64,000 nucleotides of DNA from Clostridia bacterium (GTDB lineage: Bacteria > Bacillota > Clostridia > RGIG6154): the NCBI GenBank assembly GCA_017409875.1, contig JAFQRW010000006.1, forward strand, positions 49,717-113,716, in the 5' to 3' direction. Under the pieces are notes generated by a model. That model had not been told where the DNA came from and made no database searches. It saw only the letters and a program-made list of their open reading frames with translations. This document shows positions 5,218 to 32,643 of the stretch, one piece after another. A program made the position numbers and the translations under genes. How positions within the stretch are numbered: the stretch's first letter is position 1; the number at the start of each line of letters is the position of its first letter.

Positions 5218-6468
5218 TTGAACTGCTTTGCTTTATCAGGTGGCAGGCGCCTTTTGGGTGAAATAACCGTTCAGGGTTCTAAAAATTCTGCATTGCCGCT
5301 TATAGCTGCCTGCCTTTTAAACAAAGGTAAATGTGTTATTCATGATTGCCCCGATTTGTCGGATGTTCGGGCGGCAGTTGATATTTTAAATTGCCTGGGT
5401 TGTGATGCTTCATTTTCCGACGGAACGGTTATCTGCAATTCTAGTTTTGCAGACAAACATATTATTCCCGAATACCTTATGCATAAAATGAGGTCTTCGG
5501 TAATCTTTCTTGGCAGTATGATTTCAACCCTTAAAAAAGCCATTTTATCATATCCGGGTGGATGCGAAATAGGTGCAAGACCTATAGATATACATATTGA
5601 AAGCCTTAAAAAATTAGGTGTGGATATTTTAGAATGTGAAAACCACTTAACATGTATTACCAATGGAATAATTCCTGAAAGAATTGTTTTGCCATTTCCA
5701 AGTGTGGGAGCCACAGAAAACATTATGCTGGTGGCTGCCGTGTCAAACGGACAGACAATTATAGAAAATGCGGCAAAAGAACCTGAAATTGTTGATTTAC
5801 AAGGCTTTTTGAACTCTATGGGCGCAGATATAACAGGAGCCGAAACAGGCAGAATAATAATAAACGGAGTGGGAACTCTTAGAGATACAGAGTATAAAGT
5901 TATACCTGACAGAATTGCGGCGGCAACATTTATGTGTGCTGCACTTGCAACTGACGGTGAAATCGTTCTTAACAATGTAAGATGCGACCATTTAGACGCT
6001 GTTACAAATGCTTTAAGAAAATCAGGAGCTAAAATACAGGAAAACAAATCCTGGATGAGTATAAAACGTGGAAAATATTTTTCCGGAATAGGAAGCTTAG
6101 AGACAGAAGTTTATCCTGCATTTCCTACAGATGCTCAGCCGGCACTTACAGCTTGTCTTGCGGTTGCAGACGGGAAAACGGTCCTTCGTGAAAAAATATT
6201 TACAGACCGTTTCCGCCATGTGCCATATATGAACAATATGGGTGCAGATATTAAGGTTTTCGGCGATACTGCCGAGATAAACGGAGTGTCTGAGCTTAAA
6301 GGCGATATGCTGCTTGCTCATGAACTAAGGGGCGGTGCAGCGCTTGTAATTGCAGGGCTTTGTGCCAAAGGACAAAGTACAGTCGGAAACATAAATTTTA
6401 TTGACAGAGGATATGAAAGCTTAGAAAAAACCTTTAGAAGTTTAGGTGCAGATATACAAAGAATTTAA
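5218..6468 (+). CDS. murA: UDP-GlcNAc 1-carboxyvinyltransferase
   Basis: GSKNSALP, MRSS, PGGCEIGARPID (catalytic Cys), SVGATEN, AAKEPEIVDL, FPTDAQ, IDRGYE; TTG start after GGAGG. Confidence 0.95.
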   Translation: MNCFALSGGRRLLGEITVQGSKNSALPLIAACLLNKGKCVIHDCPDLSDVRAAVDILNCLGCDASFSDGTVICNSSFADKHIIPEYLMHKMRSSVIFLGSMISTLKKAILSYPGGCEIGARPIDIHIESLKKLGVDILECENHLTCITNGIIPERIVLPFPSVGATENIMLVAAVSNGQTIIENAAKEPEIVDLQGFLNSMGADITGAETGRIIINGVGTLRDTEYKVIPDRIAAATFMCAALATDGEIVLNNVRCDHLDAVTNALRKSGAKIQENKSWMSIKRGKYFSGIGSLETEVYPAFPTDAQPALTACLAVADGKTVLREKIFTDRFRHVPYMNNMGADIKVFGDTAEINGVSELKGDMLLAHELRGGAALVIAGLCAKGQSTVGNINFIDRGYESLEKTFRSLGADIQRI

Positions 6469-6479
6469 GGGATAATTAA

Positions 6480-7253
6480 ATGAAAAAACAACCAAAAAAC
6501 AGCGGGAAAATTATTGATATTAACCGCCGTGAAATCAGAAAACGAAAAAAAAGAGCCGCCAGAAATCGCTTTATATGTTTTTTGGCGGTTATAGCTGTTA
6601 TTACTTTTATGATGACACCGGTCTTTAACATCAAATGGATTGATGTAACAGGTAATGAAAAAACAAAGTTTGGCGAAATTGTAAAAGCATCAGGCGTTGA
6701 TTATGAGCAAAATATATTCAGATTAAACATAAAAAAGAGCAAAGCCCAAGTTAAAAAAATTGCATATATTGATGAAGTGAGCATTGCAAGGCATCTTCCC
6801 GGCGGAGTGATGATAAAGGTTACAGAAAGAGTGCCCGTTGCCTGCATAAAATACGCAAACGGATATATGCTTATTGATAAAACAGGCAGACTTTTAGAAA
6901 CAGTTAAAGAGCAACTTAATTTTCCTGAAATTGTTGGAATAAAACTTGCAAAACAAAAGGCGGGAGAGACATTAAAAACTACAGACGAGCAAAGAATTGT
7001 TGCAATGGGCGAGCTTTTGGATACATTAAAAGAGCATGAGCTTTTAGAAAGAACATCTTTAATAAACATTAAAAATGCAGATAATGTTACTTTTATTATA
7101 GACGGCAATAAAACAGTGAAAACAGGCGGAAACTACAGACTTGATTACAAGCTTAAAATGCTTGAAGCTACAGTTTCCGAGCTTTCAAGGTCAGAGGCAG
7201 GAGTAATTGATTTGTCCGTCGAGGGACAGGCACTTTTTACACCGGAGGAATAA
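6480..7253 (+). CDS. ftsQ: cell division protein FtsQ/DivIB
   Basis: basic N-terminus, single TM, POTRA motif FNIKWIDVTGNE...IKVTERVP; dcw position. Confidence 0.88.
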   Translation: MKKQPKNSGKIIDINRREIRKRKKRAARNRFICFLAVIAVITFMMTPVFNIKWIDVTGNEKTKFGEIVKASGVDYEQNIFRLNIKKSKAQVKKIAYIDEVSIARHLPGGVMIKVTERVPVACIKYANGYMLIDKTGRLLETVKEQLNFPEIVGIKLAKQKAGETLKTTDEQRIVAMGELLDTLKEHELLERTSLINIKNADNVTFIIDGNKTVKTGGNYRLDYKLKMLEATVSELSRSEAGVIDLSVEGQALFTPEE

Positions 7254-7256
7254 TAA

Positions 7257-7486
7257 ATGAAATATGACGGAATTTTGATATGCTCAGATATGGACGTAAC
7301 CTTCGAACCAACTGAGCAAAATATAAATTCCTTAAAAGAGTTTCAGGCAGAAGGCGGAAAGTTTTCTGTTGCAACAGGCAGGAATATAAAATATGTAAAA
7401 AAACACTTTGAAGAATAAGCAAAGGTTTTATGTCAAATGTGCCTATTGCAAAAATAATATCAGAGCTTTATAGCCTCTTGACATAA
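7257..7486 (+). pseudogene. internally deleted Cof-type HAD hydrolase remnant
   Basis: 7257-7418 reads MKYDGILICSDMDVTF...EGGKFSVATGR (HAD motif I and ATGR motif II) then stops at 53 aa; a possible C-terminal helix PIAKIISELY follows in another frame. Confidence 0.7.
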
Positions 7487-7506
7487 AAGAGATAAAATGT
7501 TAAAAT
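7478..7506 (+). promoter_or_regulatory. sigmaA promoter of FMN riboswitch/ribU
   Basis: TTGACA-N17-TAAAAT with extended -10 TG. Confidence 0.8.
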
Positions 7507-7511
7507 TTAAT

Positions 7512-7622
7512 AGAGCTTCGGGGCAGGGTGAAATTCCCTACCGGCGGTAAAGCCCGCGAGTGTTAAAAACACTGATTTGGTGAAATTCCAGAGCCGACGG
7601 TATAGTCCGGATGAAAGAAGTA
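7512..7622 (+). ncRNA. FMN (RFN) riboswitch aptamer
   Basis: CTTCGGGGCAGGGTGAAATTCCCTACCGGCGGT..AGCCCGCGAG...GGTGAAATTCC.GAGCCGACGGTATAGTCCGGATGAAAGAAG matches RFN consensus; upstream of ECF S component. Confidence 0.97.
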
Positions 7623-7635
7623 AATATGTATATTT

Positions 7636-7666
7636 ATGCCCCTTTGCATTAAAGGGGCATTTTTTT
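7636..7666 (+). terminator. riboswitch expression-platform terminator
   Basis: ATGCCCCTTT-gcatt-AAAGGGGCAT followed by T6. Confidence 0.85.
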
Positions 7667-7693
7667 GCCTCTTAAAATGAAAGGAAGATTTTA

Positions 7694-8248
7694 ATGGACA
7701 AAAAGAATTTGAGAATACTAACAGTTATGGGGATGCTTTGCGCAGTTTCGGTGATTTTGGTGTCAATCATTCATTTTCCGCTTTTTGCGGCTGCACCGTT
7801 TTTAGAATATGACCCTGCAGATGTTCCTATTTTTATTGCCACTTTTTCATTTGGCCCACTAGCCGGACTTTTACTTACTGTTGTAACCTCTGTAATTCAG
7901 GGAGTTACAGTTAGTGCGTCAAGCGGCTTATATGGTATTTTGATGCACATTATTTCAACAGGAAGCTTTTGCCTGGTTGCAGGAGTTATATATAAAAAGC
8001 TTCACACCAAAAAGGGTGCGGCGATATCACTTGTTATAGGCACGCTTACAATGACTTTAGTTATGATACCTGCCAATCTTTTTATTACACCTTATTTTAT
8101 GGGCGCACCTGTTTCGGTGATAAAAGGATTGCTGCTTCCTGCTATAATTCCTTTTAATTTTGTTAAAGCTGCGGTAAATTCTGTTATAACATTTTTCCTT
8201 TATAAAAGAATTTCAAACCTTTGGGAAAATAAACAAAACAATTTATAA
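7694..8248 (+). CDS. ribU: riboflavin ECF transporter S component
   Basis: PFLEYDPADVP motif, ~6 TM, C-terminal IIPFNFVK; preceded by FMN riboswitch. Confidence 0.9.
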   Translation: MDKKNLRILTVMGMLCAVSVILVSIIHFPLFAAAPFLEYDPADVPIFIATFSFGPLAGLLLTVVTSVIQGVTVSASSGLYGILMHIISTGSFCLVAGVIYKKLHTKKGAAISLVIGTLTMTLVMIPANLFITPYFMGAPVSVIKGLLLPAIIPFNFVKAAVNSVITFFLYKRISNLWENKQNNL

Positions 8249-11626: not shown

Positions 11627-11667
11627 ATGCAGCCTCTCTTGTGTAGAGAGGTTGTATGTGCTTTTTT
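11627..11667 (+). terminator. hairpin/terminator after M23 gene
   Basis: ATGCAGCCTCTCT-tgtgt-AGAGAGGTTGTAT followed by T-rich tract. Confidence 0.6.
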
Positions 11668-11692: not shown

Positions 11693-11721
11693 TTGATTTT
11701 GAGAAATATGTGTGATATAAT
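11693..11721 (+). promoter_or_regulatory. sigmaA promoter of the PqqD-SLH locus
   Basis: TTGATT-N17-TATAAT with extended -10 TG and upstream A tract. Confidence 0.75.
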
Positions 11722-11784
11722 TACCGTACATAGGTATAACTATGCACTTTTTTGCTTGCAAAATTATGTTTGGAAGGTGAACTG

Positions 11785-12048
11785 ATGCGTCTTAAAGATG
11801 GGTTTTTATTAAGAAAAGTAGCCGGCGAATATATTGTTGTTCCAACGGGGGACAGTATGGTTGACTTTAAGGCGATGATTTCTCTTAATGAAACCGGTGC
11901 ATTCCTTTGGGAGCAGCTTACTCAGGACAAAACAGAGCAGCAACTTTTACAGTTGCTTTTAAGTGAATATGACGTTGACGAAGAAACAGCAACTTTGGAT
12001 ATTACAGAGTTCTTAAATCTGCTGAAGGACAAGAATTTGTTGGTATGA
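11785..12048 (+). CDS. PqqD family protein / stand-alone RiPP recognition element (RRE)
   Basis: FLLRKVAGEYIVVP...ISLNETGAFLWEQL...LLSEYDVDEETATLDITEFLNLLKDKNLL; 87 aa from ATG after GGAAGGTGA. Confidence 0.92.
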   Translation: MRLKDGFLLRKVAGEYIVVPTGDSMVDFKAMISLNETGAFLWEQLTQDKTEQQLLQLLLSEYDVDEETATLDITEFLNLLKDKNLLV

Positions 12049-12497
12049 GTATAAAAAAAGTTTTAAGCACAAAAGAACTTATGCCTCTTATAAGCGACAT
12101 TTTGAAAACGGCTGAGCGTGTGCGTTTTACCGTCAAGGGAAACAGTATGTATCCCTTGCTCAGAGGCAGTCGTGATGAGGTTGAAGTTGTAAAGTGCGAC
12201 AGTATCGGTAAATATGACATTGTTCTTTACAAAAGAAAAGACGGGTCGTATGTTCTCCACAGAGTATTAAAAAAAGATAACGATACATTGTCAATCGCCG
12301 GTGACTTTGAACAGGAGCTTGAACATCCGGTTTATGAAAGTCAGGTAATTGCAAAGGTTGATAATATAATCAGAGACGGCATGAAAGTTATTTCCTGCAA
12401 AAGCAGTATGTATAAGCTGTATTGCGTTGTATGGTCTGCCGTAATCAAAAACAGACGTAAAATACTTAGAATACTTAGGAAACTGAGGAAATGGTGA
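12045..12497 (+). CDS. S24/S26 family peptidase (soluble, Ser/His type)
   Basis: FTVKGNSMYPLL (catalytic Ser), YDIVLY, YVLHRV (His), AGD; ATGA overlap with PqqD; no N-terminal TM. Confidence 0.85.
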   Translation: MSIKKVLSTKELMPLISDILKTAERVRFTVKGNSMYPLLRGSRDEVEVVKCDSIGKYDIVLYKRKDGSYVLHRVLKKDNDTLSIAGDFEQELEHPVYESQVIAKVDNIIRDGMKVISCKSSMYKLYCVVWSAVIKNRRKILRILRKLRKW

Positions 12498-14164
12498 ATT
12501 TGAAAAATAAAGATATCGCTAAGAAATGGTTTTTTAAGAATGTTAAAAGCTCTTTAAGCGGGGTATTTGTTCTTACTGTCATTTCAATTCTTATTAATGT
12601 ATTTGGCGTCGGCTTTGCAGTTTCTTCCCAGCGCGTTTTGGATGTTGCATCCAAAACTATTGGCGGAAGCTTAATCAAAGAAACAACCATATTGTTTTTA
12701 TTGATTGTTTTGCAACTTGTTTTGCAAATTATCCTCTCAAAATGCTATGTTAATGTGCAGGCAAAGGCGAGAATTAAAATAAAAACGGATTTATTCCACA
12801 GTGTTGTAAACAAAGACCTTACCGAAGTGAATTTTTATCACTCAGGCGAATTGGTCAACAGGCTTTCAAGCGATGTAAATGTTGTATCAAGTGCCGTGGT
12901 AGACATTATACCTACAGCACTTGCACTCGGCATTAGTGTTTGTTTAAGCTTTGCGGTGCTGTTTGCGTTTGATTCTGTATACGCAGTTATTTATCTGATA
13001 GTTGCGCCGCTTGCATTGCTGACTGCAAGGATTTTCAGAAAAAAGCTTAAAGTATTACACAAAGAGTCAGTTCAAACTGATGGTACTGTTAAATCCTTTA
13101 TGCAGGAATGCTTTAGAAATCTTCTGGTCATTAAGGCTTTTGAAAAACAAAAGCATGTGACCGACAAGTGTAATGCTTATCAACTTGCTAACTACAAGGT
13201 TTTGATAAAGAAAAATGATGTTAGTATTTTAGCAAACGTAATGTTCTTTTTGTCCATTACGGCGGGCTATTATCTGACACTTATATGGGGAGCATATAAG
13301 CTCTCTTTGGGACTTTTGACTATTGGTGAGATTGTTGCAATGCTTGAACTTGTTTCTCAGATTCAGTCTCCTTTAAAGTCACTGTCATCACTTTTCCCGC
13401 AATACTATTCGGCAGTTGCATCATCAGAAAGAATTTTGGAACTTGAAAATCTTCCCGATGAGAAGCACACGGAAAATCACAACAAAATAAGCGGTTTTTC
13501 TAAGATAGTTATTGACAATGTTTCATTTACATACGATGAAAAGCCTGTTTTTGACGGTGCTTCGTGTGAGATTGAAAAAGGTGACATCGTTGGAATTTAC
13601 GGCGAGTCGGGAATTGGGAAAAGCACACTCATTAAACTTATTTTAGGGGTGCTTAATGCCCAACAGGGTGAGATTTACATAGTTGACCAGGATGGTCAAA
13701 GAGTTTTGGTTGATACAGAAACCAGAAGCCTGTTTTCTTATGTGCCACAAGGTAACCTGATTTTATCCGGCACAATCGCAGAAAATGTGGCGTTTGGTTC
13801 TGACAACATAGATATAAAGCTGGTTGAACATTGCATCAAAGTGTCGCAGCTTGATGAAATGGTCAGTCAGTTGCCATTAAAGCTTGATACCGGTTTAGGT
13901 GAAGGCGGCCTAGGTCTTTCTGAAGGACAGGTACAGCGATTATCTATCGCAAGGGCATTGTATCGGAATTCTGAAGTCCTGTTGCTTGATGAAGCAACGT
14001 CGGCGCTGGATCGCGAGACCGAAATCAGGGTGTTGGAGGAAATAAAGAGGATGAATAAGACTTGTCTTTTCATAACTCATCGCAAGGAAGCACTTGGAGT
14101 TTGCAGCAAGCTTTTAAGTGTAAAAGGCGGAAAAGTTTCCATCGACAGGCAGGAAATTTTATAA
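12491..14164 (+). CDS. ABC exporter, fused permease/ATPase
   Basis: N-terminal TM domain, GESGIGKS, LSEGQVQR, LLLDEATSALD, ITHR. Confidence 0.92.
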   Translation: MVNLKNKDIAKKWFFKNVKSSLSGVFVLTVISILINVFGVGFAVSSQRVLDVASKTIGGSLIKETTILFLLIVLQLVLQIILSKCYVNVQAKARIKIKTDLFHSVVNKDLTEVNFYHSGELVNRLSSDVNVVSSAVVDIIPTALALGISVCLSFAVLFAFDSVYAVIYLIVAPLALLTARIFRKKLKVLHKESVQTDGTVKSFMQECFRNLLVIKAFEKQKHVTDKCNAYQLANYKVLIKKNDVSILANVMFFLSITAGYYLTLIWGAYKLSLGLLTIGEIVAMLELVSQIQSPLKSLSSLFPQYYSAVASSERILELENLPDEKHTENHNKISGFSKIVIDNVSFTYDEKPVFDGASCEIEKGDIVGIYGESGIGKSTLIKLILGVLNAQQGEIYIVDQDGQRVLVDTETRSLFSYVPQGNLILSGTIAENVAFGSDNIDIKLVEHCIKVSQLDEMVSQLPLKLDTGLGEGGLGLSEGQVQRLSIARALYRNSEVLLLDEATSALDRETEIRVLEEIKRMNKTCLFITHRKEALGVCSKLLSVKGGKVSIDRQEIL

Positions 14165-14186
14165 AGTTTGTTTGGGAGGAATAAAG

Positions 14187-15134
14187 ATGAAATGTAAGAG
14201 AATTATCAAAGTAGTAAGTGCGCTTGCATTAACCTTAGCTTTGTTAGTATCTTCTGGCGTTGTTTCATTTGCTGCATCATACACAACAACGACAAATTAT
14301 CTTAATCAAGGTACTATCGAAGTTACATCTAGAGCTTTCGGTTTAGATGAAGGCGACATGGCTACTTACGTTGCGTATAATGGCAACGGTTTCTCAGAAG
14401 CTAATGCAGTTTACATCGACCAGGCAACAGCAGATGATACCCGCATTGTTACTTTTACATATCAGGCAGATTCTGATGATGTAAAAGCAACAGTTAAGTT
14501 CGGCGGAAAAGGCACAACAGTAACACCTGACAAAGAAGGCTACGAAATTGCGGTAACTGTTAACGGAGAACTTTCTTCAACAGAAGTTGTTCCTACTGTA
14601 GATGCAGCTTACACATTCGAAGGCGACGAGGACTTTCTTGCAAGAGAAATTCCTGTTAGCTTAGTAGCAGGTCAGGCTGTTAATGCTGTTACATTTACAG
14701 CAGAAGGTGCTGCTGACGCTACAACTGTAGATGCTTGGTATGTTAAAGACGGCGCAATCGTTGTTTTAAGCAATGTTATCAGATCAAATGGTACATTAGC
14801 TATTACAACAGAAGAAGCAGAAGTTTCTGTTAGAATCGGCGACGTTGTAGCTGGAACTGGAAAAATCACAGCATTTGCTAAAGCAGTTTGTGCTGACGAT
14901 GCAGATTATGGCATTATCCTTGCAACAGAAGACGCTGACATTTCTACAACAGTTTCATTTGAAGAAGCTGGCGATTACACAACAGCAGTTAAATTACCTG
15001 CATTAGGTAAAGGTGCTGACGGTGGATTCTGTGTAGAAGTTGAAGATGATCAGCTTGTTGCAGGAACAAACTACAAAGTAGCTGCTTATGCAGTAGACAA
15101 AGTTACACCAACTAAGGTTGTAACTGCTCAGTAA
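14187..15134 (+). CDS. secreted acidic beta-rich hypothetical protein
   Basis: Sec signal MKCKRIIK...VVSFA|AS; codon use (GCT/GTT/ACA/TTC/ATC) resembles the ribosomal protein genes; GGAGGA RBS. Confidence 0.75.
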   Translation: MKCKRIIKVVSALALTLALLVSSGVVSFAASYTTTTNYLNQGTIEVTSRAFGLDEGDMATYVAYNGNGFSEANAVYIDQATADDTRIVTFTYQADSDDVKATVKFGGKGTTVTPDKEGYEIAVTVNGELSSTEVVPTVDAAYTFEGDEDFLAREIPVSLVAGQAVNAVTFTAEGAADATTVDAWYVKDGAIVVLSNVIRSNGTLAITTEEAEVSVRIGDVVAGTGKITAFAKAVCADDADYGIILATEDADISTTVSFEEAGDYTTAVKLPALGKGADGGFCVEVEDDQLVAGTNYKVAAYAVDKVTPTKVVTAQ

Positions 15135-15184
15135 TAAAAGCGACTGTATCATTTAACGATACAAATTCAGAAGGAGAATTTATC

Positions 15185-15346
15185 ATGAAAAAATATCAGA
15201 AACCTGTTTTAGAGGTTGTTGAATTAGCAGTTGCTGAAAATATTGCTGCATTAGTGCCGAAAACTATCTATAAAAGATCGGCAGGCTCTGCACTTGCTCA
15301 GAAAGGTTTGGAAACATACAAACTTCAGGGGGAGAGCTTAAGCTAA
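15185..15346 (+). CDS. 53-aa putative RiPP-like precursor peptide (below ORF-track cutoff)
   Basis: AAGGAG RBS; MKKYQKPVLEVVELAVAENIAALVPKTIYKRSAGSALAQKGLETYKLQGESLS; YxxPxL RRE-binding leader motif; inside PqqD/peptidase/ABC/kinase locus. Confidence 0.75.
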   Translation: MKKYQKPVLEVVELAVAENIAALVPKTIYKRSAGSALAQKGLETYKLQGESLS

Positions 15347-15394: not shown

Positions 15395-16270
15395 ATGCAA
15401 TATACTGTCGCAGGTTTTAATATTGATGTTATCAGTGAGCATCCTTCTTACATTTTTATGAGAATGAAGGATTACCAAAGCACTTTTTCGGGGGAAGCTG
15501 ACTTTACAATCAGGTGTAAAGAAGAAAAAAATATTGCTCTCCCCGACGGATTGGTGCATGTTGGTGAAAGAGTCGGAAGATGGCTTTGGTTTAAAAAAAA
15601 TGACGGCACGTTCGGTGCGTACATAAAATATACCGATATCCCAGAGATTGCGGCTTTAGTTGATTGGGATGAAAATTTTAAAAATATCAGTCTTTCGGTT
15701 TATGATGTTGAGCCCTTTGGCGGATTGCCAATAGCTCAAAGAATTTTTTATTTATTGGGCGATGTTTTTACATACTCGGTATTAAGCTTGGGCGCAGGAG
15801 TTTTTCATTCTTCTGCTATAAGCTATAAAGAAAAAGGGATTTTGTTTTCGGCACCGTCGGGAACAGGAAAATCTACCCATACATCGCTTTGGAAAGATGT
15901 ATTTAAAAAAGATGTATCAATCTTTAATGATGATACACCGATACTTAAGATAGAAAATAACGTATGTTTTGCTTACGGATCTCCGTGGAGCGGCAAAACT
16001 GCGATTAATAAAAATATAAAAGTTCCACTTAAGGCTATTGTAAGCCTTGACAGAGCGGAAAAGAATTCGGCAAAAAAACTTACAGGGTTAGATGCTTTTT
16101 ACAGAGTGTTCAACGAATTCAGAAAGCCTCCTGTAGGAACGCTTATGGAAAATTGTTTAACACTTATAGACGGCGTTTTGGAAAGAGTTCCGGTATTTGA
16201 ACTTTTGTGCAATAAAGAAAAAGACGCTGTCACTACAATATACAATGCTGTCGGATTTGACAGAGAATAA
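15395..16270 (+). CDS. HPr-kinase/PEPCK-like P-loop kinase
   Basis: FHSSAI...GILFSAPSGTGKSTH...W...NDDTP...YGSPWSGK; His, Walker A and DD motif of the HPrK-like fold. Confidence 0.8.
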   Translation: MQYTVAGFNIDVISEHPSYIFMRMKDYQSTFSGEADFTIRCKEEKNIALPDGLVHVGERVGRWLWFKKNDGTFGAYIKYTDIPEIAALVDWDENFKNISLSVYDVEPFGGLPIAQRIFYLLGDVFTYSVLSLGAGVFHSSAISYKEKGILFSAPSGTGKSTHTSLWKDVFKKDVSIFNDDTPILKIENNVCFAYGSPWSGKTAINKNIKVPLKAIVSLDRAEKNSAKKLTGLDAFYRVFNEFRKPPVGTLMENCLTLIDGVLERVPVFELLCNKEKDAVTTIYNAVGFDRE

Positions 16271-16288
16271 TTTAAAAGGATGAATACT

Positions 16289-17899
16289 ATGAAGAAAAAA
16301 CTGATTTTTAGCACATTTTTATGTGCAGTGATTTGTGTAAGCTTGATGCTTAGCGTTTTTGCAGTTTCATTTTCAGATTTAACGAGCAGCTACTGGGCTT
16401 ACAGCAACATTATTGAGTTAAGCTCAAAAGGTGTTATCAACGGATATAGCGATGGCACATTCCGTCCGGAAGCTCATGTTACAAGAGCTGAGTTTGTAAA
16501 GCTTATCGGAACAATTAATGTTACAAAAGGCGAGGACTTTGCAGACCTTCCAAAGAGCCACTGGGCATACAGCTACGTTATGAACTCAGGCGTTGATATG
16601 GACAGAAAGAATTTCCGTCCTGATGAAAATATCACCAGAGCAGAAGTTTTAGATATTTTATGGAACAGATACGGTATCAAAACTGATGCAAAGGTTCCTG
16701 GATTGATTGAAAATCAGCATAAAAATGTGGAAGCTGTCGCATGGGCATATTCATACGGACTTATGATTGGCGATGACGGTATAAACTTAAGGCTGGAAGA
16801 TGATTTGTCAAGAGCTGAGGCGGTTACACTAATATTACGCTCAAGAAAAGTTGATACTTCAAAACAAAAATTGCTTGCAGACAACGTAGATAGTATTGTT
16901 TTGGAAAACATTTTTAACAGGGCAATGCTTTTTGATAAAAAGTACAATGAAAATGATACAGTTACAGTTGGGGAGATTTCAAGGGCGGCATTAAGACTTG
17001 CATATCAGACACAGCAAATTCCTTACAATAAAGATTTGTACATAGGAGTTCCTGCTTTTGAAAGTGAATATGCAAACGATATTGCACACATGGCAAAACA
17101 GGTATTTGGTGAAGAAAATAACAATAAAGAATTTGCAGAAAGTAAAGCAAATCAGCAACAAGCTATAGCGGCACTTATGTATGGTTATATGTTTAAAGCA
17201 AACGAGTCACCTGTTATTGGAAGAATGGACGACTATTACAAGGATGCAACAGTTGAAAGAAGCAAAACCATGCTTAATATGCTTCTTACATATACAAACA
17301 GACGTGGCGTGTTTGCAAGTGCAGACGGACTTTTGCACAATGATAAAGCAATTACTCATAAAGAAATTGCATCACTTATTTTGCAGCTCGATAGCTTAAC
17401 AGGCTCACAAATCAGCTATTCAAATGGCAAAGAACAAGACGAAAAATTAAGCACAGATGCTTATCTTTATAAAGAAGCTGATAAAGATTTTGGTATTTTA
17501 TTAAAAGAACTTCCTGCGGTGGTTTATAAAACACCTATTGAAGGCTCTGCTTCAGAATTTACAGTATTTTCAAAAGATTTCTTTGAAATATTTACTACTC
17601 TCGCAGACGGTATTCAGGGAAAAGCAAAATCAAGAGCCACCGAGATTGTACTAAGAGTATATCCTACACTTATTTCAAATGCCGGCGACGAAGTTGTAAT
17701 GAGAACAAAGATTTATGTGGCTTCAAACCCTAAAGGATTAGGACTGGGTGAAATTATCGGTAAGTGTGATATGAACACTGATGTTGCAGCAAAAGAAGGG
17801 ACAACTTATATAATTGACATTTCAACAAACCAGCCACTTAATGATATGTACATAAACCCTGACGACGTGAGTTTAAGAAGACTTATTTGGAATGATTGA
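16289..17899 (+). CDS. S-layer homology (SLH) domain protein
   Basis: signal peptide; FSDLTSSYWA, GVINGYSDGTFRPEAHVTRAEF, FRPDENITRAE, LSRAEA. Confidence 0.88.
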   Translation: MKKKLIFSTFLCAVICVSLMLSVFAVSFSDLTSSYWAYSNIIELSSKGVINGYSDGTFRPEAHVTRAEFVKLIGTINVTKGEDFADLPKSHWAYSYVMNSGVDMDRKNFRPDENITRAEVLDILWNRYGIKTDAKVPGLIENQHKNVEAVAWAYSYGLMIGDDGINLRLEDDLSRAEAVTLILRSRKVDTSKQKLLADNVDSIVLENIFNRAMLFDKKYNENDTVTVGEISRAALRLAYQTQQIPYNKDLYIGVPAFESEYANDIAHMAKQVFGEENNNKEFAESKANQQQAIAALMYGYMFKANESPVIGRMDDYYKDATVERSKTMLNMLLTYTNRRGVFASADGLLHNDKAITHKEIASLILQLDSLTGSQISYSNGKEQDEKLSTDAYLYKEADKDFGILLKELPAVVYKTPIEGSASEFTVFSKDFFEIFTTLADGIQGKAKSRATEIVLRVYPTLISNAGDEVVMRTKIYVASNPKGLGLGEIIGKCDMNTDVAAKEGTTYIIDISTNQPLNDMYINPDDVSLRRLIWND

Positions 17900-17934
17900 T
17901 ATTTACACAATATACGGAAAGGATGAAATTTGAA

Positions 17935-18627
17935 ATGGAAGAAAGAGAAATAGATATTTGGGGTTTAGTTCAGGCAGTTCTTAAGAGATGGTGGCTTGTT
18001 GCTATTATTACTATTTTATCAGGTTCTATTAGTTTTGGGTATTCAAAGTTTGCAATTACACCTCTATATTCTGCAAGAGGCACACTGTATATAACAATTG
18101 ACAACACAGCTTCATCACATGGCGGCACAAGTCTTGATTACAATTCAATCTTGGCTGCTCAGGAGCTGACAAATACATACTCACTGATTCTTTCGAGCAA
18201 TACTTTTTATAAAATTGTTGCTGCAGAAAGCGGACTTAATTACAATTACAAAGAAATTTCAAGAATGGTTTCAATGAGCAATGAAAATGAAAGTGAAATT
18301 ATGAGCATAACTGCAACTTGTCCGAACAGGGAGCATGCGGCAATCATTGTTGAAACAATGTTAAATAACGCTCAGGCGGAAATTTCGAGAGTTGTTATTG
18401 GCGGAAGCGTTAGAATTATTGATCATCCAGAAATGCCTTTGACACGTTCTTATCCTAATGTAACGAAAAATGTATTTTTATGTTTGATATTAGGAGTGGT
18501 TTTGGGATGCGCACTTGCTATTTTAATTGAATGGCTTGACGACACAGTTAAGAATAGCGACGATGTTATGAAGTATGGTATCCCGGTGTTAGCAGAAATC
18601 CCGCTTTTGGAAGCAAAAAGCGAATAA
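17935..18627 (+). CDS. Wzz/CpsC (YveK-like) polysaccharide co-polymerase
   Basis: EREIDIWGL...KRWW, TPLYSA, two TM segments, DDTVKNSDDV..GIPVLAEIP. Confidence 0.88.
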   Translation: MEEREIDIWGLVQAVLKRWWLVAIITILSGSISFGYSKFAITPLYSARGTLYITIDNTASSHGGTSLDYNSILAAQELTNTYSLILSSNTFYKIVAAESGLNYNYKEISRMVSMSNENESEIMSITATCPNREHAAIIVETMLNNAQAEISRVVIGGSVRIIDHPEMPLTRSYPNVTKNVFLCLILGVVLGCALAILIEWLDDTVKNSDDVMKYGIPVLAEIPLLEAKSE

Positions 18628-18666: not shown

Positions 18667-21600
18667 ATGAAGAAGTGTGTTAAATCACTTATAAGCATGA
18701 TTATTGCACTGACTATGCTTATGCCGACAGCACTGCCGGTTTTTGCAGATAATTCAGTGCCGGCAGACAGTTTATATGGCTTTGTGGATTTTCCTACAGG
18801 ATGGTCAAAAACTGCAATGGCTCATGCTGTTGAAAATGGTTTAATATATGGAAAAACAAGCGAACGTATATATCCTCATGATAATCTTACAAGAGCTGAA
18901 ATGGCGACAATTATAAACCGTGCGTTTGGTTCTACGGTAACCAAGGATATTTCAGCATTTGCAGATGTATCCCAGTCACAATGGTACTATAATGATATAA
19001 AGAAAGCTTATAATATGCAAACACTTTACGGTGACGCAGGTGGAACTATGCGCCCCGATGCTTTTATTATAAGAGAAGAGGCTATAGCTATTGTTGCAAG
19101 AGCTATGGTTTTAAGCGGATATGCGGCATCAAATCTTGACAAATTCAAAGACAAGGCTGATATTTCTGATTGGGCAATAGATCCGCTTGCTTCGATGGCT
19201 GCTTGTGGTTATGTAAACGGCGATGAAAAGTCTAATATGAATCCAAAGGCGTTTATAACAAGAGAAGAGTTTGCACAACTGCTTCACAACATTATTAAAC
19301 ATTATTATAACGAAGAAGACGGAATTACGACATTCAAAGGTAATGTTATGGTTAATAAGCCGTTTACTTCGTTGAGTAATTTAGTTATTAACGGTGACCT
19401 TATTTTGGGTGACGGTGTTGGAACAAGCACTATTGTTCTTAAAAATGTAAAAGTAACTGGTCGCATTCTTATAAGAGGTGCTACACATATTTCGTTCGAA
19501 AACAGTAACTTTGAAGGTGGCGTTACAGTTAAAAATGTTAATGATGTAGTGCATTTTGATCATTTTAGTGATGAAGTGCATTTTAATTACATGAAGGATC
19601 ACACAGAAGTTACATTTAAGAAAAAAACTACCGGTGGCGGCGGAACACCTCCTGCACCTACGCCAACAACTGCAAATTACACAGTTGAACATTATCAGGA
19701 AGCTTTAGACGGAAGTTTTGCAGTTTTTGAAACTGAAACTCTTTCTGGCACTGTTGGCTTAAGTGTAACAGCTGTTGCAAAAACATATGAAGGATTTAGC
19801 GAAGATACATTAAATCCGTCAAGAGTTGCAACCGGTACGGTTGCTACAGGTGGCACTTTAGTATTGAAGCTGTATTATACAAGAAACACATACACAGTAA
19901 CCTTTGATTTTGGTTCGGGCGCTACACTTACACCAGGTACACAAACAAGCAAAACAGATAAATACGGTGCAACTGTTGTTCTTCCGACAACCGGGTTTTC
20001 AAATGGTGCACTTAATTTTGGCGGATGGTATACACAGCCAAACGGTGTAGGAGAACAGATAACACAGATTGTAATCGGCACATCAAATACTACCATTTAC
20101 GCTTACTGGACATCACAAAACACATATAAAGTAGAGCACTATCAGGAAAATATTGATGGCAGCTATTCCATTGTTGATGCGGATACACAGATATTAGCTG
20201 CAGATGCGGGAACAAACGTTACAGCTGTTGCGAAAACATATACAGGTTTTTATGAAAACACTTCTCACGCACAAAGAGTGCCAAGCGGTATAGTTTTGGC
20301 TGACAACTCATTAGTGCTTAAGCTTTACTATCAGAGAAACACCTATACATTCACATTTAATGCTGCCGGCGGTTCTATTTCAGGCACACCAAAAACTGTT
20401 TACAAATTTGGTGAAACATTAGTGCTTCCAACACCTACAAAAGGAACAGACTCCTTTGGTGGATGGTGGACTTTGCCAAACGGAACCGGAACAAAAATTG
20501 AAAACACAAGCGTACTGGGAACAGATATTACATCTGCTGCCATTACAGTTTATGCACATTGGATACCTGCAGCACCTACTACTGGCACATTTACAGTAGA
20601 ACACTACCAGGAAGATTTTTACGGAAACTGGATGCTTTATGAAACTGATCTTGAACAGACAATAGCAATAGGAACAGTTTTAAAAGCTCAGGACTACAAA
20701 AACGAATATGCGGGATTTACAGTAGATTTGGCAAATAGTCCTAATGTTACAGTTGCAGCAGGAAACAATACACTTGCTATTTACTATACAAGAAATGAAT
20801 ACACAGTAACGTATAATTTCAACGATGGCGTACCTGCAACAGTTCATACTGTAACACTTAAGTATGGACAGCAGGTAGACCTTGCATATTTGCCGACAGT
20901 TACAGTGCCGGGTAAATTCTTTGCAGGTTGGTATAATGCGCCTGCAGGCGGAACACAGTACCCGTCACTTTGGGTTCCGGCGGAAAATATTACAATTTAT
21001 GCACAGTGGTCAGACAATCCGGGCTATGCTATTGAGTATTGGCTGGAAAATGCAGATGATGATGAATATACATGTGTAATCCGAGAAGTAAGAAATGATG
21101 TGACTGAAGGACAGACAGCGACAATTCCTGCAGAAATTTTTGAACATTTCACAGAAATCGTCCATCCACAAACCAACACCTCTGGTGTTGTTACAGCTAC
21201 TCCTCAGTTAACTCTCAAACGATTCTATAACAGAGCAAGATACACCATAACCTTTGATTATCAGGGTGCAGATGGTGGTGTTATAATACCTTCAAAAGAA
21301 TATAAGCACGAACAGACAATAGAGTTGCCATTTCCTACAAAAACAGGTTATATGTTAGAAGGCTGGTTTACAGGTATAAATGGCACAGGCGAAAAGATTT
21401 TTGACGGAAGCCAGATTACTTCAGGCAGAACACTTTATGCTTATTGGGTGCCGGCAGTAGTTGAATTTAAAGTTGAGCACTACAAACAAGAGCTTGACGG
21501 TACATATTCTGCTACTCCTTCGCAGACAGAAATAAAAGAGGATTATACAGGAATTGAAGTTGATGCCGTAGATCATAAATTAGACTTTACAGGCTTTATA

Positions 21601-24600
21601 TTTGACGGTTCAAGTCCATCAGTTATAGTTTCAGGTGATGGAAGTACAGCTCTTAAGATTTACTACATCAGAGAAACATACACAGTTTCATTCGATACAG
21701 GTCTTGGTACAGCAGTGTCACCTGTTGTATATAAGTACGGTCAGGCATTTACAGAACCTGGAACAACAAGACCGGGTTATGAAGTTGAAGGCTGGTATAC
21801 AACATCAACATTTGATGCAGCAACCAAGGTTTCAGCAGGCGATTTAGCCGGCACAGCATTTACTTCTGGTACTTTGTATGCAAACTGGGTAGCACTTCCT
21901 TCAGACTTTACAGTAAAACATCATAAGCAAAACATTGATGATGATTTATATACCGAAGCTGAAACAGAAACAAAATCTGCTTTGACAGATTCAACAGTCA
22001 GCGCTGATACTTATAAAAAACAGTATACTGGCTTTGCAGTTGACCTTTTAAGCAGTGTTGATAAAACAGTTTCAGCTGACGGAAGCACAGTTTTAAATAT
22101 TTACTATCTGAGAAATAAGCACAGCATCACATATAACTACGAAAACGATGTTACAGCACCTTTAGTAGTACCAGATGTTAAGTATGATGCACAGGTTAAT
22201 CTTGCAGAACCGGACACAAGCTTATGGCCTGCAGGTAAATATTTCACAGGCTGGTCACTGACTTTAGGCGGTGAAGCAATAGTAGCATATCCAATGCCTG
22301 ATGAAGACTTGAATCTCTATGCAGTATGGGGAAATAATCCTCCATATCAGTTGCAGTATTTATTTGAAAACGCTGATGATGCTGATTACACAGTAAATCC
22401 TGCATATTCAACTGCAAAAAATGATGTTGTAGAAGGTCAAAGTGCATCAATTCCTGAACTTTCAACAATTCCTACAGGATTTGAAGCATATCCCACACAT
22501 GGCGACACATTACTTTCAGGAACAGTTACTGAGACCCCTCAGTTAGTTCTTAAACGCTTCTACAAGAGATTAAGATTTACAGTAGAGCTTAACTACAACG
22601 GAGCAGACGGAAACAACACAGTTTTAACACAGGAATATAAGTACGAACAAACTGAAAACTTACCAGCACCTACAAAAACAGGTTACATTTTTGCAGGTTG
22701 GTTTACTGCACTCGATAATACAGGAATTTTAATTGCAGACGGAAGCAAGATTACTTCAGGCGGAACACTTTATGCAAAGTGGACACCTGATGTAGTAGAA
22801 TTTAAAGTTGAGCATTACAAACAGAATATTGACGGAACATATCCGGATTCTACAACTTTAACAGATACAAAGAATGAATACACAGAAACAATAGTAAAAC
22901 CGGAAGATTACGACATAGCTATCGAAGGCTTTACATTTGATGCTACAAGAAATAGCGGAATTGCAATAGCTGGAAATGGTACTACTGTTTTAAAGGTTTA
23001 CTATACAAGAAATGAATACACAGTTACATATAACTATGGTGAGGCCGGCGGAAGCAATACAGCTACACTTAAATATGAAGCAAATATCAGCCTTGCACCA
23101 CCTACAGCTACAGTAGCAGGCAAATATTTTGCAGGATGGTATGACGCACCAACAGGTGGCTTGCAAATCACAAGTCTTACAATGCCTGTAGGCGGAACTA
23201 CAATTTATGCATACTGGTCAGTAAATCCGTCATACACAGTAAAGCATTACAAACAAGCACTTGACGGAACATATCCTGAAGATGGTGCAGTAATTGAATA
23301 CATTCAGGCAGGACTTAATGAAACAGTTACTGCGACAGCAAAGACTTTCACAGGATTTAGTGAAGATACATCCAATCCGTCAAGAGTGCCAAACGGTACA
23401 AATGATGGCAATTTAACGCTTAAACTTTACTATACAAGAAATCAGTACACCCTTACATTTGAATATAATGGTGCAACCGGCAACAACACCACCCTTTCAC
23501 AAAGTTATAGGTTTGGTGAAACAATAGCTCTTCCAACACCTACAAAAGGTGAACAGTTTGCTTTTGGTGGTTGGTTTACAGGTCAAAACGGCACAGGTAC
23601 GCAGATTACCAATTTGAGTGTATTAGGAACAGATGTTACAAATAGTAACACAACCCTTTATGCAAAATGGATTCAGAAGTACGCATATACTGTAAAATAT
23701 TTAAAACAGAATGTTGACGGAGTAAGTTACACAGAGGTAGCAGCTGATACAAAGACATTTTACGGTTTTGACAATGAAGTTGTAAGCATTACAAATGATA
23801 AGACATACGAAGGTTTTGAATATGATACAGGCAGCATAACAAGCGGCGTAGTTTCATCTGTAACACCTTTGGTAATTGAACTTAAATTTGTAAGAAACAG
23901 CTATAATGTAAACTTTGATTTTGGTGGCGCAACAACATCGCTTCCTTCAAGTGCACCATATAAGTACGAAGAATTGGTAGTTCTTCCTACAACAGGCTTT
24001 ACAAACGGCGTAAAGACATTTGTTGGCTGGTTTGATGCTCAGACAGGCGGCAACAAGGTTACACAGATTACAGTGCCTTTGGGCGGAACAACTGTATATG
24101 CACGCTGGGCCGACACATATTTTACAGTTAAGCATTTAATTGAAAATATTGATGGTACTGATTATTCACAGCATGGTGCAAGTAGAACCGAATTTATAGC
24201 AGCAGGGGAGGCTGTAAAACCTGAAACCTATGCTATTTTAATTGACGGATTTGCATTTGACACCACAAGAAATGATGAAATTACAGTATCAGAAGACAAC
24301 ACGACTGTATTAAATGTTTACTATACAAGAAATGAATACACAGTTACATATAACTATAATGAAAGTGCAACACCTACAATAAAAACAGAAACGTTTAAGT
24401 ATCAGCAAAATGTTGACCTTTCAGCACCAATTATTACAGTTCCTAATAAGTTCTTTGCAGGATGGTATGACGCACCAACAGGTGGCTTGCAAATCACAAG
24501 TCTTACAATGCCTGTAGGCGGAACTACAATTTATGCACAGTGGTCAGACAATCCGGGTTATGCTATTGAATATTGGTTAGAAAATGCCGATAATGGCGAC

Positions 24601-27600
24601 TATACCCGTGAAGTGCGCGAAGTTAAAAATGATGTACAAGAGGGACAGACAGCGACAATTCCTACAAGGAATTTTGATTACTTTAATGAAATTACGCATC
24701 CGCAAACCACCATATCAGGTACAGTTTCTTCAACTGAGGAGCTTGTTCTTAAACGTTACTATCAAAGAATAAGGTTTAGTGTAGACCTTGAGTATAACGG
24801 TGCAACAGGCGGAAACACCACTCTATCACAGGATTATAAATACGAACAGACTGAAAACTTGCCGACACCTACAAAAACAGGTTATGAGTTTGCAGGTTGG
24901 TTTACTGCGCCTGATGATACAGGAGTTTTGATTGCAGACGGCAGTAAAATGCCTCTCGTTGATAGACTTTATGCAAAATGGACACCTGCGTTGGTAAAAA
25001 TTATTGTTGAACATTATAAACAAAAGGTAGAAACTGATGATTTTGATGCACCGATTGTTGATAATCAGCAAAAAGCATACACAGAAAGTACAGTTTCAAA
25101 TAAAATGACAACATATGATGGCTTTAGTGTTGACTTAAATGCAGCAGGAACAGTAAATTCAGCAACAGTTTTACCTGACGGAACTACAGTTCTTAAATAT
25201 TACTACACAAGGAACAAATACAATGTAATTTATGATTATAACAACAATGAACATCCGGGCACGCTTGTTCAAACCCTTAAGTTTGAAGCAAGTGTTGACC
25301 TTTCGGTTGAACCTACATTTACAGTGACCAATAAGTTCTTTGCAGGATGGTATAATGCAGCAACCGGCGGAACTCAGGTAACAAGCCTTACAGTTCCTGT
25401 AGGCGGCGCAACACTTTATGCAAAATGGGAAGACAACCCGGGATATGCTTATGAGTACTGGCTGGAAAACATTGAGGACAACAATTATACACGCGTTGAA
25501 AGAACAGTGTATAATGATAAAACTGTAGGTACATATGTAGGTCCTATTCCAACAAAAACTTATGATGGATTTGTTGAAAACGAGGCTAAGGCGGTACTTT
25601 ACGGTAATGTACTCCAAGATGGATCACTTGCTCTTAAGCGTTTCTATGACAGAAAACGATACACAGTAACATTTGACTACAGAGGAGCAACAGCAGGAAT
25701 TACGTCTAAAGAATATAAATATGGTCAATCTGCTGGTCTTCCGGCACCTTCAAGAGAATTCTATGACTTTAAAGGTTGGTTTACAGAGGTAAATGGTGGA
25801 GGAACAAAGGTTGAAAGCACCGATCTTGCCGGCGTGAAATTTGAATCAGGAACACTTTATGCGTTCTGGGAATTCAACTGGGACGGAGAAGTTAAATTTA
25901 CTGCAAATGTTACAGAGCAAGACTCTGATAATGACGAATTTTCTATAATAGTAGATGTATCAAACAACCCGGTAGGTATTGCAAAATATGACCTTTCACT
26001 TTCTTTTGACAATACAAATGTTGTTGCAATTTTACAAGACGGAAAGGTTGTAACAGACCTTAAAGCTGATGGAGGCTTTGGAGCAGATGTTGCATCCATT
26101 ACATCAAACGCAGATGGAATCACCACAAATGATGACGCAGCACTTTTAAATACAATTACTGTATCATGGGAAAATGCTACAAATAAATCAGGAAATGCAA
26201 ATCTGTTTAAGATAAGATTTAAGATTGTGGGAACAAAGGGAGACGAAGACCATGAAGCTCCGGCACTAATGCGCTTTAGAATGATGAGAGCGATTTCTTT
26301 AATCCCTGGTCTTGAAAGCTTGCCGTTTACATTGGAAGCAACCACAGTTGCAGTTAAATCTGATGAAACAGATAACAACAGCTACATCGAGCTTGAAAAA
26401 GAAACTGAAGGTGACAGCCTTTCACCTTATATGGTTGAGCATTATAAAGAAAATGCCGACAATGATGGTTATACAAAGGTATTCACTCAGTACGGACACG
26501 CAGTTTTAGGCAGTGTAGTTTGGGCTGATCTTAGAAATGCGTACTTAACTGACGGGTTTACACCTGATTATGTAAATTCGATAGACAAAGCAGTGGTGAC
26601 TGAAAGTGGTGCTGTCTTAAAGCTTTACTATTTAAGACCAAGATTTACCGTAACCTTTGATTATCAGAATGCTACAACTGTAGGAATTCCTTCAGTAAGC
26701 CTCAAAGCAGGTGCTTTGGTTTACAACAATCTTCCTTCAGAAAGCACTTTCAGTAAGACCGATTACAACTTCAGCGGTTGGTATACTGAGGCAAATGGTC
26801 AGGGAACAAAGGTTGATGCAAGTTACAAATCTCCTTTTGAAGATGTAACACTTTATGCATACTGGACACAGACACCTTATAAGGTTGAGCATTATCTGGA
26901 AGAATTAGACGGCAACTTTACATTTAAAGAAACAGAAGAAGCTCAGGCAAAAGCCGGAACTTTAGTTACAGCAACCGCTAAGAGCTATCTTGGTTTTGAT
27001 GCACCGGCTGTTATGCCAAGTGCAGTAGTTGCAGAGGACGGCTCAACAGTTATCAAAGTTAACTACACAAGAAAAACCTATACCATTAACTATAACTTTG
27101 GTGACGGATATGCAGACGGAAGTTATGAAATCGAGTTTAAATACGGACAGTCCATTGAACTTGCTAAAGGTAAAAACGATAACGGACTTGTTTTAGGCGG
27201 TTGGTATACTAAAGCAAACGGTCAGGGAATAAAGATAACTACTACTGCAGATATAGATGACATTTTAACAAATCTTGCAGGCGATACAATCACCCTTTAT
27301 GCAAACTGGGTTGAAGAGATTGCTAACTATACCATTGAATTCTATAAGCAGAGCATAGATGTTTCTAACTATTATCCTCAGGTTATGGCAGACACAATAA
27401 CTCTTCAAGGCGTGGTTGGAAGCTTTGTAGAAGTAGATCCAAACGACCCTGCAATTAAAAATAAGTATGTAGGATTTGAACTTAATGAAGCGATAAGTTT
27501 CTTAAAACTAAAACTTGAGGAAACAGGTACACGTTTAAGAGTTTACTATGACAGAAATGAATATACATTAACATTGAACTTCGGTGAAGGTGCAACAGTA

Positions 27601-32577: not shown

Positions 32578-32586
32578 TAATTTATC

Positions 32587-32617
32587 AGCGGGTAAACTTA
32601 GAGTAAGTTTACCCGCT
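32587..32617 (+). other. intergenic 14-bp-stem hairpin without poly-U tail
   Basis: AGCGGGTAAACTTA-gag-TAAGTTTACCCGCT. Confidence 0.75.
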
Positions 32618-32643
32618 TGATTAAAAAAGAAAGGATGATACAT

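Follow-up and report, generated by a model that had tools for sequence, protein, structure and literature searches.

In a window of 64,000 nucleotides (the whole stretch of clostridial DNA that was analysed), a reading frame of 53 codons lies between a gene for a secreted protein and a gene for a P-loop protein. The questions raised by this locus are whether so short a frame is a gene at all, what kind of peptide it would encode, and what the enzymes encoded around it would do to that peptide. The closest described counterpart is the system that makes linear polyphosphorylated peptides (LPPs), described in 2026 and centred on Bacilli (Popov et al., Nat Commun 2026, PMC13381572). We propose that the frame probably encodes an LppA-like precursor of a ribosomal peptide that is linear, phosphorylated, and exported, and that the locus is a variant of the LPP system in gut Clostridia.

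The 53-codon frame and its peptide family

The features of the peptide gene are as follows.

15171..15176, + strand: ribosome-binding site AAGGAG, 8 nt 5' of the peptide ATG
15185..15346, + strand: precursor peptide gene, ATG to TAA, 53 aa plus stop; the LppA-like part of the locus
15194..15211, + strand: leader motif Y4-Q-K-P7-V-L9 (YxxPx[L/I/V])
15236..15250, + strand: E18-N19-I20-A21-A22, probable leader/core border, the bond itself placed tentatively by analogy
15257..15274, + strand: P25-K-T27-I-Y29-K30 block, conserved in this clade
15341..15343, + strand: Ser53, C-terminal, candidate phospho-acceptor

The ribosome-binding site and the 53-aa frame given in the original prediction both match the sequence and its translation exactly. 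A homologue of the kinase-like gene that follows the frame was found in 29 of the 61 related genomes searched (the window's own genome counted), including all 17 genomes of the same family. Around this gene, a small frame homologous to the peptide gene is present in 17 of 20 relatives' loci, and in 16 of the 17 same-family genomes it stands directly 5' of the kinase-like gene. The seventeenth same-family locus, which has no peptide homologue, stops at a contig edge; the two other loci without one belong to other families and have flanks of only 1.5 kb. The peptides of L002 and L006 are identical and are probably one record. In most of 12 orthologous genes, a ribosome-binding site of the GGAGG type precedes the ATG by 6-10 nt, while two have weaker purine runs. 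The pN/pS ratio of the peptide gene is 0.29 (first 31 codons), with 2-5 synonymous changes against 1 non-synonymous change within the genus. Lack of conservation of the frame had been named as one ground for giving up the original prediction; the frame is conserved. The 53-codon frame is a real, conserved gene, far beyond chance.

The family extends well beyond these loci. A profile of 16 peptides matches at least 130 clusters in a large protein collection, which holds a protein identical to the window's peptide (on 9 contigs) and 129 related clusters besides. Since this peptide is already on record there, gene callers do find the frame. None of the 120 peptide clusters listed has a Pfam family, only four of the 120 rows carry a name, in each case "hypothetical protein", and against PDB sequences the profile gave nothing but a chance match (E 0.33).

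Logan contigs from three RNA-library runs of one study lie over the peptide frame; such contigs do not prove transcription. X2 spans 15151-15329 with no differences, and the RNA-library contigs extend over 13.7-15.33 kb, which takes in both the secreted-protein gene and the peptide gene. No contig of these libraries lies over the RRE, peptidase, or kinase genes, and contigs can show neither absence nor expression level. Additionally, an inverted repeat (TGTATC, 7 nt, GATACA) occurs at 15145-15163, between the secreted-protein gene and the ribosome-binding site of the peptide gene; its 3' arm and the next bases are conserved in three genus-level relatives.

The residue counts given below come from an alignment of 120 listed relatives out of at least 130 peptide clusters. 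M1, Y4, P7, E13, and P25 are invariant, and K6 and L14 nearly so (119 of the 120 peptides each). The residue at position 18, located 14 residues after the leader Tyr, is acidic in all 120. At position 19, 117 peptides have N, A, or S; I20 is kept in 115, and position 22 is occupied by A (96), L (15), or V (5). Further on, position 27 is T in 117 peptides and S in the remaining 3, and Y29 is kept in 116. The view of the frame as a precursor-type peptide with a YxxPxL leader is thus upheld, with the motif widened to YxxPx[L/I/V]. Distant relatives keep an N-terminal block, M-[KR]-x-Y-x-K-P-x-[LIV]-x-V-V-x-L...[ED]-x-[IMLF]-[AS]-A, and their likeness to the window's peptide stops at about residue 22. 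A conserved leader followed by a variable core had been expected; the leader is indeed kept, but within the family conservation continues through P25-K-T-I-Y-K30. The tail becomes variable past residue 31, except for the column of S53.

This column holds Ser in 114 of the 120 peptides, and does so in tails of plainly different types. When the tails were shuffled (20 controls), no column exceeded 61 for any residue or 28 for Ser, a comparison that overstates Ser conservation because the peptides are related by descent. The claim that a terminal Ser is retained therefore holds for the residue rather than for its terminal place: it is the last residue in just 59 of the 120 peptides, and 1-9 residues follow it in 61. 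The window's own subgroup is uniform in this respect, every listed member ending in Ser.

The operon, its neighbours, and its spread

The peptide gene belongs to an operon that also encodes an RRE, a signal-peptidase-like protease, an MsbA-like exporter, a secreted protein, and a protein of HprK/PEPCK fold. The surrounding features are listed here.

11627-11657, 5' of the promoter-like site: terminator-like hairpin (consensus match)
11693..11721, + strand: promoter-like site TTGATT-17-TATAAT with TG, probable operon start (consensus scan only)
11785..12048, + strand: discrete RRE of the PqqD family, about 87 aa (Pfam PqqD, 6.7e-19)
12045..12497, + strand: soluble ER/archaeal-type signal-peptidase-like protease, 150 aa, LppS counterpart (NCBIfam sigpep_I_arch, 8.3e-7, below cut-off)
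12491..14164, + strand: MsbA-like ABC exporter, 557 aa, with no peptidase domain (Pfam ABC_membrane and ABC_tran)
14172..15134, + strand: secreted protein, 320 aa, with a Sec-type signal peptide (no Pfam or NCBIfam family)
15395..16270, + strand: P-loop protein of predicted HprK/PEPCK fold, 291 aa from ATG, LppK counterpart
16280-17899, + strand: SLH-domain protein (Pfam)
17896-18627, + strand: Wzz-type chain-length determinant (Pfam)

A PqqD protein, an S26-type peptidase, and a kinase had been placed alongside the peptide from the start, and the RRE, the protease, and the HprK-like protein are all found in the operon. The RRE frame opens at a TTG at 11752, while its homologues begin at the ATG at 11785. 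The exporter matches NCBIfam MsbA_lipidA at 1.1e-69, a score below the cut-off. The promoter-like and terminator-like sites come from a scan whose site counts equal chance. A homologue of the secreted protein is encoded at the same place, directly 5' of the peptide gene, in L002, L023, and L024. A search for its family in the Atlas gave only leads, all with scores below 0.9 and TM below 0.4.

The gene set was followed in 11 extended loci of relatives. The RRE and the kinase are present in all 11, the peptidase in 9, and the peptide in 8; in the two loci that lack the peptidase, the protease is encoded elsewhere in the genome. Immediately 3' of the kinase gene, an SLH or Wzz gene was found in 8 of the 11 loci. 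Three loci, L028-L030, have the order kinase-RRE-peptidase-pump, with no peptide of this type nearby. Downstream in the window, at 18667-34218, a protein of 4636 aa is encoded that carries 3 SLH domains and 16 Flg_new (Listeria-Bacteroides) repeats; it is followed by a gene for a 533-aa SLH/Flg_new protein and then by the SecD/SecF genes. The N-terminal part of the 4636-aa protein is also found 3' of the operon in L002 and L027.

A wider view was obtained from an alignment scan with the protease, according to which at least 586 species genomes encode a relative. Most of the 80 protease records listed come from uncultured gut and rumen Clostridia. Among the best 80 of these at least 586 protease-anchored loci, the RRE and the kinase accompany the protease in 55. 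A peptide of this leader type lies within 7 kb of the protease gene in 10 of the best 80 (other species) and not in the other 70; a reversed-sequence control for the leader search gave 0 matches in 19,578. With such a peptide in just 10 of these 80 loci, the family described here is thus a single branch of a wider clostridial system. In L028-L030 and in 46 of the 80 loci L039-L118, no peptide with such a leader lies near the genes for the protease, RRE, and kinase. The precursors of these loci are either encoded remotely or of another, unrecognised type. Outside Clostridia, relatives of the protease at 39-40% identity were seen in a Chitinophagales MAG and a Sumerlaeota MAG (L067 and L082).

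Predicted processing and competing readings

The predicted folds of the enzymes fit a pathway of leader recognition, phosphorylation, cleavage, and export. A profile of 12 RRE homologues matches the lasso B1 proteins TbiB1 (1.2e-9), TfuB1 (4e-7), and PbaB1 (5e-6), as well as LppB (9x8z_B, 8.5e-6), so that by profile score the window's RRE is no closer to LppB than to the lasso proteins. Its residues N35, D72, and F76, which are invariant or near-invariant, align with the leader-contact residues N33, D70, and F74 of LppB. Co-folding of the RRE with the peptide scored 0.39 (runs 0.40, 0.38, and 0.39), against 0.02 for the best control. Among the calibration pairs, 116 of 157 solved complexes and 2 of 215 mismatched pairs reached the mark; the band at 0.60 or under, in which this score falls, held 18 of the 157 solved complexes and both mismatches that passed. 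The three runs have at least 69% of contacts in common and a partner pLDDT of at least 49, the peptide's own fold being uncertain. Since RRE-leader complexes have already been solved, passing the mark may reflect likeness only. For the RRE-leader interaction that the original prediction proposed as a check, the score stands well above the control but in a low band, and it lends weak support to binding of the leader by the RRE through Y4-x-x-P7-x-L9.

In the protease, S34, H72, D87, and E93 are invariant among 10 homologues, with the motifs G-N-S-M-x-P and L-H-R. The best PDB match of its model (pLDDT 88.6) is the human SEC11 subunit 7p2q_A (4.7e-4), with S24/S26 folds next, while a profile search against PDB sequences gave only weak S26/S24 matches, with E of 0.03 and above. 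The model lacks an N-terminal membrane anchor, and residues 9-22 form an amphipathic helix. The catalytic triad of LppS is S29, H68, and D93 (PMC13381572), and a Ser/His/acid triad is likewise found here, with Glu (E93) at the place of LppS D93.

For the 291-aa protein, a fold search was needed. Pfam gave no match on any of 12 homologues, and a profile search against PDB sequences, which returned only P-loop matches to ABC proteins (E 0.82), did not identify the protein. With NCBIfam, ScmC was matched by 12 of the 12 homologues, HprK_rel_B by 11, and HprK_rel_A by 10, in all cases below the cut-offs. The P-loop S-x-S-G-T-G-K-S-T is invariant among them. The model (pLDDT 93.2), compared with the PDB by Foldseek, resembles HPr kinase/phosphatase 1knx (7.9e-6), PEPCK, and HprK catalytic domains (TMt 0.5-0.57). 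From its fold and P-loop, we infer that the protein is a kinase.

Taken together with the order of genes, these features suggest the following pathway, which is modelled on that of the Paenibacillus LPPs. After translation of the 53-aa peptide, the small PqqD-type RRE would bind Y4-x-x-P7-x-L9, the leader joining it as an extra beta-strand. One or more phosphates would then be added to a hydroxyl residue of the core by the kinase of HprK fold whose gene lies immediately 3' of the peptide gene. The likeliest acceptor would be S53, the conserved Ser found at the C-terminus or close to it, and the second candidate would be the near-invariant T27. S53 is favoured because LppK is Ser-specific (PMC13381572) and because Ser is kept in an otherwise variable tail. 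While the RRE presents the leader, the soluble Ser/His/acid protease would cut within E18-N19-I20-A21-A22. Within this stretch, N19|I20 is favoured as the bond, as both the distance from Tyr and the acidic residue at -2 fit the LPP register; possible alternatives are A21|A22, by the classic rule of small residues at -3 and -1, and A22|L23, as originally predicted. A core of 31-34 residues would be exported by the MsbA-like pump. The peptide may also be decorated further, for example by the NTP_transf_5 enzyme encoded elsewhere in the genome, and may act at the cell surface.

The strongest competitor to this pathway is the model first put forward for the locus, in which the peptide is cut exactly after E-N-I-A-A22 to release a 31-aa basic core whose free C-terminal Ser53 is the substrate of a paeninodin-type kinase. 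Paeninodin kinases act on a C-terminal Ser. The count of 8 Ser, Thr, and Tyr residues among residues 23-53 was correct, and the border was placed well: the N-terminal block of distant relatives ends at about residue 22, and almost every member has small residues at positions 19 and 21. The exact bond, on the other hand, is a tentative placement. The would-be -1 position is L or V in 20 of 120 peptides, and the characterised LPP cut, 15 residues past Tyr (PMC13381572), would fall after N19 here. The S53 column and the terminal Ser of all listed members of the window's subgroup favour Ser53 as the acceptor, but as further residues follow this Ser in 61 of 120 peptides, a free C-terminal Ser cannot be a general requirement. 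In its exact form, we regard this model as rather unlikely and retain the LppA-like reading.

A bolder proposal concerns the function of the peptide. Rather than a sporadic product of the conflict type, it could be a vertically inherited cell-envelope factor of a family of gut Clostridia with small genomes, a linear peptide (poly)phosphorylated on the conserved Ser of its C-terminal region and exported for building the SLH-anchored surface layer and polysaccharide; together with the adjacent Wzz protein and the giant SLH/Flg_new protein, it could for example act as a phosphate-linked primer, an anchor, or a length signal. This idea is drawn from the presence of the kinase gene in every genome of the family, from the SLH or Wzz gene that comes next in most extended loci, and from the secreted-protein gene 5' of the peptide. 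We consider it speculative, and somewhat less probable than the paeninodin-type model.

A further reading reassigns the protease. In the tapA-sipW-tasA operon, a dedicated signal peptidase works with a neighbouring secreted protein. By analogy, the protease of the window could be a SipW-like signal peptidase for the secreted 320-aa protein, and the peptide could be an unrelated, uncleaved small protein, such as a regulator or a factor of surface assembly. The position of the secreted-protein gene between the pump and the peptide in close relatives, the ER-type signal peptidase as best fold match of the protease, and the RNA-library contigs that cover both the secreted-protein and the peptide genes all agree with it. 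However, the modelled protease has no membrane anchor and its helix 9-22 is as in LppS (PMC13381572), the secreted protein carries an ordinary Sec signal peptide of its own, and the peptide stays with the RRE and the kinase where the secreted-protein and peptidase genes are not adjacent (L025 and L026). This makes the SipW-like reading very improbable.

Finally, a lasso-peptide precursor with its cyclase encoded elsewhere, which the YxxPxL leader and an RRE most like lasso B1 proteins might suggest, was rejected, as the original prediction had also held: the peptide fails the rule of Thr at -2, a small residue at position 1, and an acidic residue at 7-9 (with T27 at -2, core position 1 would be Y29, and with T44 it would be K46), and the 98%-complete genome gave only two short weak matches to a cyclase (Asn_synthase, in frames of 346 and 333 aa) and no match to the B2 protease PF13471.

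The clostridial branch and related systems

The enzyme set itself has been known since 2026 as that of the LPP family (PMC13381572). The pathway was worked out there by deletions, mass spectrometry, and crystal structures on the lppA-K-B-S-D-N cluster of Paenibacillus alginolyticus DSM5050. Its core consists of the precursor LppA, the HprK-like LppK, the RRE LppB, the SipW-like LppS, the MsbA-like LppD, and the NTP transferase LppN. The YxxP motif of the leader, within YxxPxVLxHQxIxFETxxS, serves RRE binding. LppS cuts after T-1 (F-E-T|), where an acidic and then a small polar residue precede the bond, with Tyr at -16, only when LppB presents the leader, and its amphipathic helix docks on the RRE-leader sheet. 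LppK adds several phosphates to core Ser3 and accepts neither Thr nor Tyr. The clusters, whose distribution in Bacilli is patchy, are frequently part of capsular polysaccharide loci; according to the paper, what the final product is and does is not known.

The window shares with this system the RRE, the Ser/His/acid peptidase, the HprK-like protein, and the MsbA-like pump, with no cyclase in either, whereas its secreted protein falls outside the LPP gene set. Both precursors are small, with an N-terminal YxxPx[V/L], both RREs have the same Tyr- and Pro-contact residues, and both loci lie among cell-envelope or polysaccharide genes. The window's E18, 14 residues after Tyr, equals E-2 of LppA. 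Beyond this the leaders diverge: YxKPx[LIV]xV[VI]ELx[VI]x[ED]N-IAA in the window's clade stands against YxxPxVLxHQxIxFET in the LPP leader described, which leaves YxxPx[LIV] and an acidic residue at Tyr+14 as the only features in common. The window's clade has no Ser at core +3; its extras are the P-K-T-I-Y-K block and the conserved Ser of the C-terminal region. The distribution differs as well, with the kinase gene in 17 of 17 same-family genomes against the patchiness reported for LPPs in Bacilli, and inheritance of the clostridial system looks vertical.

An NTP transferase of the LppN type was not found among the frames scanned in the first ~48 kb of the window. The genome has a single NTP_transf_5 (PF14907) gene, on contig C10, with no linkage to the peptide operon. 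In its region (L036, 8011-15917), genes for a 965-aa fucose-pyrophosphorylase/GHMP-kinase, a flippase, and LicD adjoin it. Also in L036, at 5783-7743 (contig C10, ~155.8-157.7 kb), a 97-aa frame corresponds to the C-terminal end of SpoIVA only and adjoins a gene for a 550-aa large serine recombinase, an arrangement that suggests interruption of a sporulation gene by an excisable (skin-like) element.

Some clostridial peptidases already appear in a table of the LPP paper (PMC13381572), where SSN clusters 4, 9, and 20 are entered under "RRE others", with neither an LPP RRE (count 0) nor a precursor. The window's RRE and protease resemble these rows when compared by eye. The motif strings of the clade are absent from six supplementary files of that paper, and a literature search, with paywalled papers outside its coverage, found no paper on the clostridial peptide family. 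As far as our searches show, the precursor family, the probable acceptor, and the stable tie to the surface layer are not in print. The analysis thus provides a defined precursor family for clostridial peptidase/RRE pairs that are given without a precursor in that table. It also adds to the Bacilli-centred LPP set a large clostridial branch, with at least 586 species genomes encoding the peptidase and at least 130 peptide clusters. In this branch, the leader follows a grammar of its own and the probable acceptor site differs; the branch has a stable tie to surface-layer and polysaccharide genes and occurs in abundant uncultured gut bacteria. With two conserved hydroxyl residues, T27 and S53, the question of the kinase target becomes a simple two-mutant experiment.

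Three further groups of systems invite comparison. Remote likeness links the kinase to ScmC and HprK_rel_A/B of the SynChlorMet and GeoRSP systems, each with a PqqD-family partner; however, the window's kinase scores far below the cut-offs, and no radical-SAM enzyme is encoded at the window's locus. Paeninodin-type lasso systems are alike in the YxxP/WxxP leader, the discrete B1-type RRE, the HprK-like kinase, and, for the window's subgroup, the terminal Ser; in contrast, the window's peptide fails their core rules, neither a cyclase nor B2 was found in its genome, and its leader peptidase is a serine protease. SipW-type (S26B) signal peptidases have the fold and the Ser/His motifs (G-N-S-M-x-P and L-H-R) in common with the window's protease, whereas the latter is modelled without a membrane anchor, is paired with an RRE, and would presumably act on a cytoplasmic leader peptide rather than on a Sec signal.
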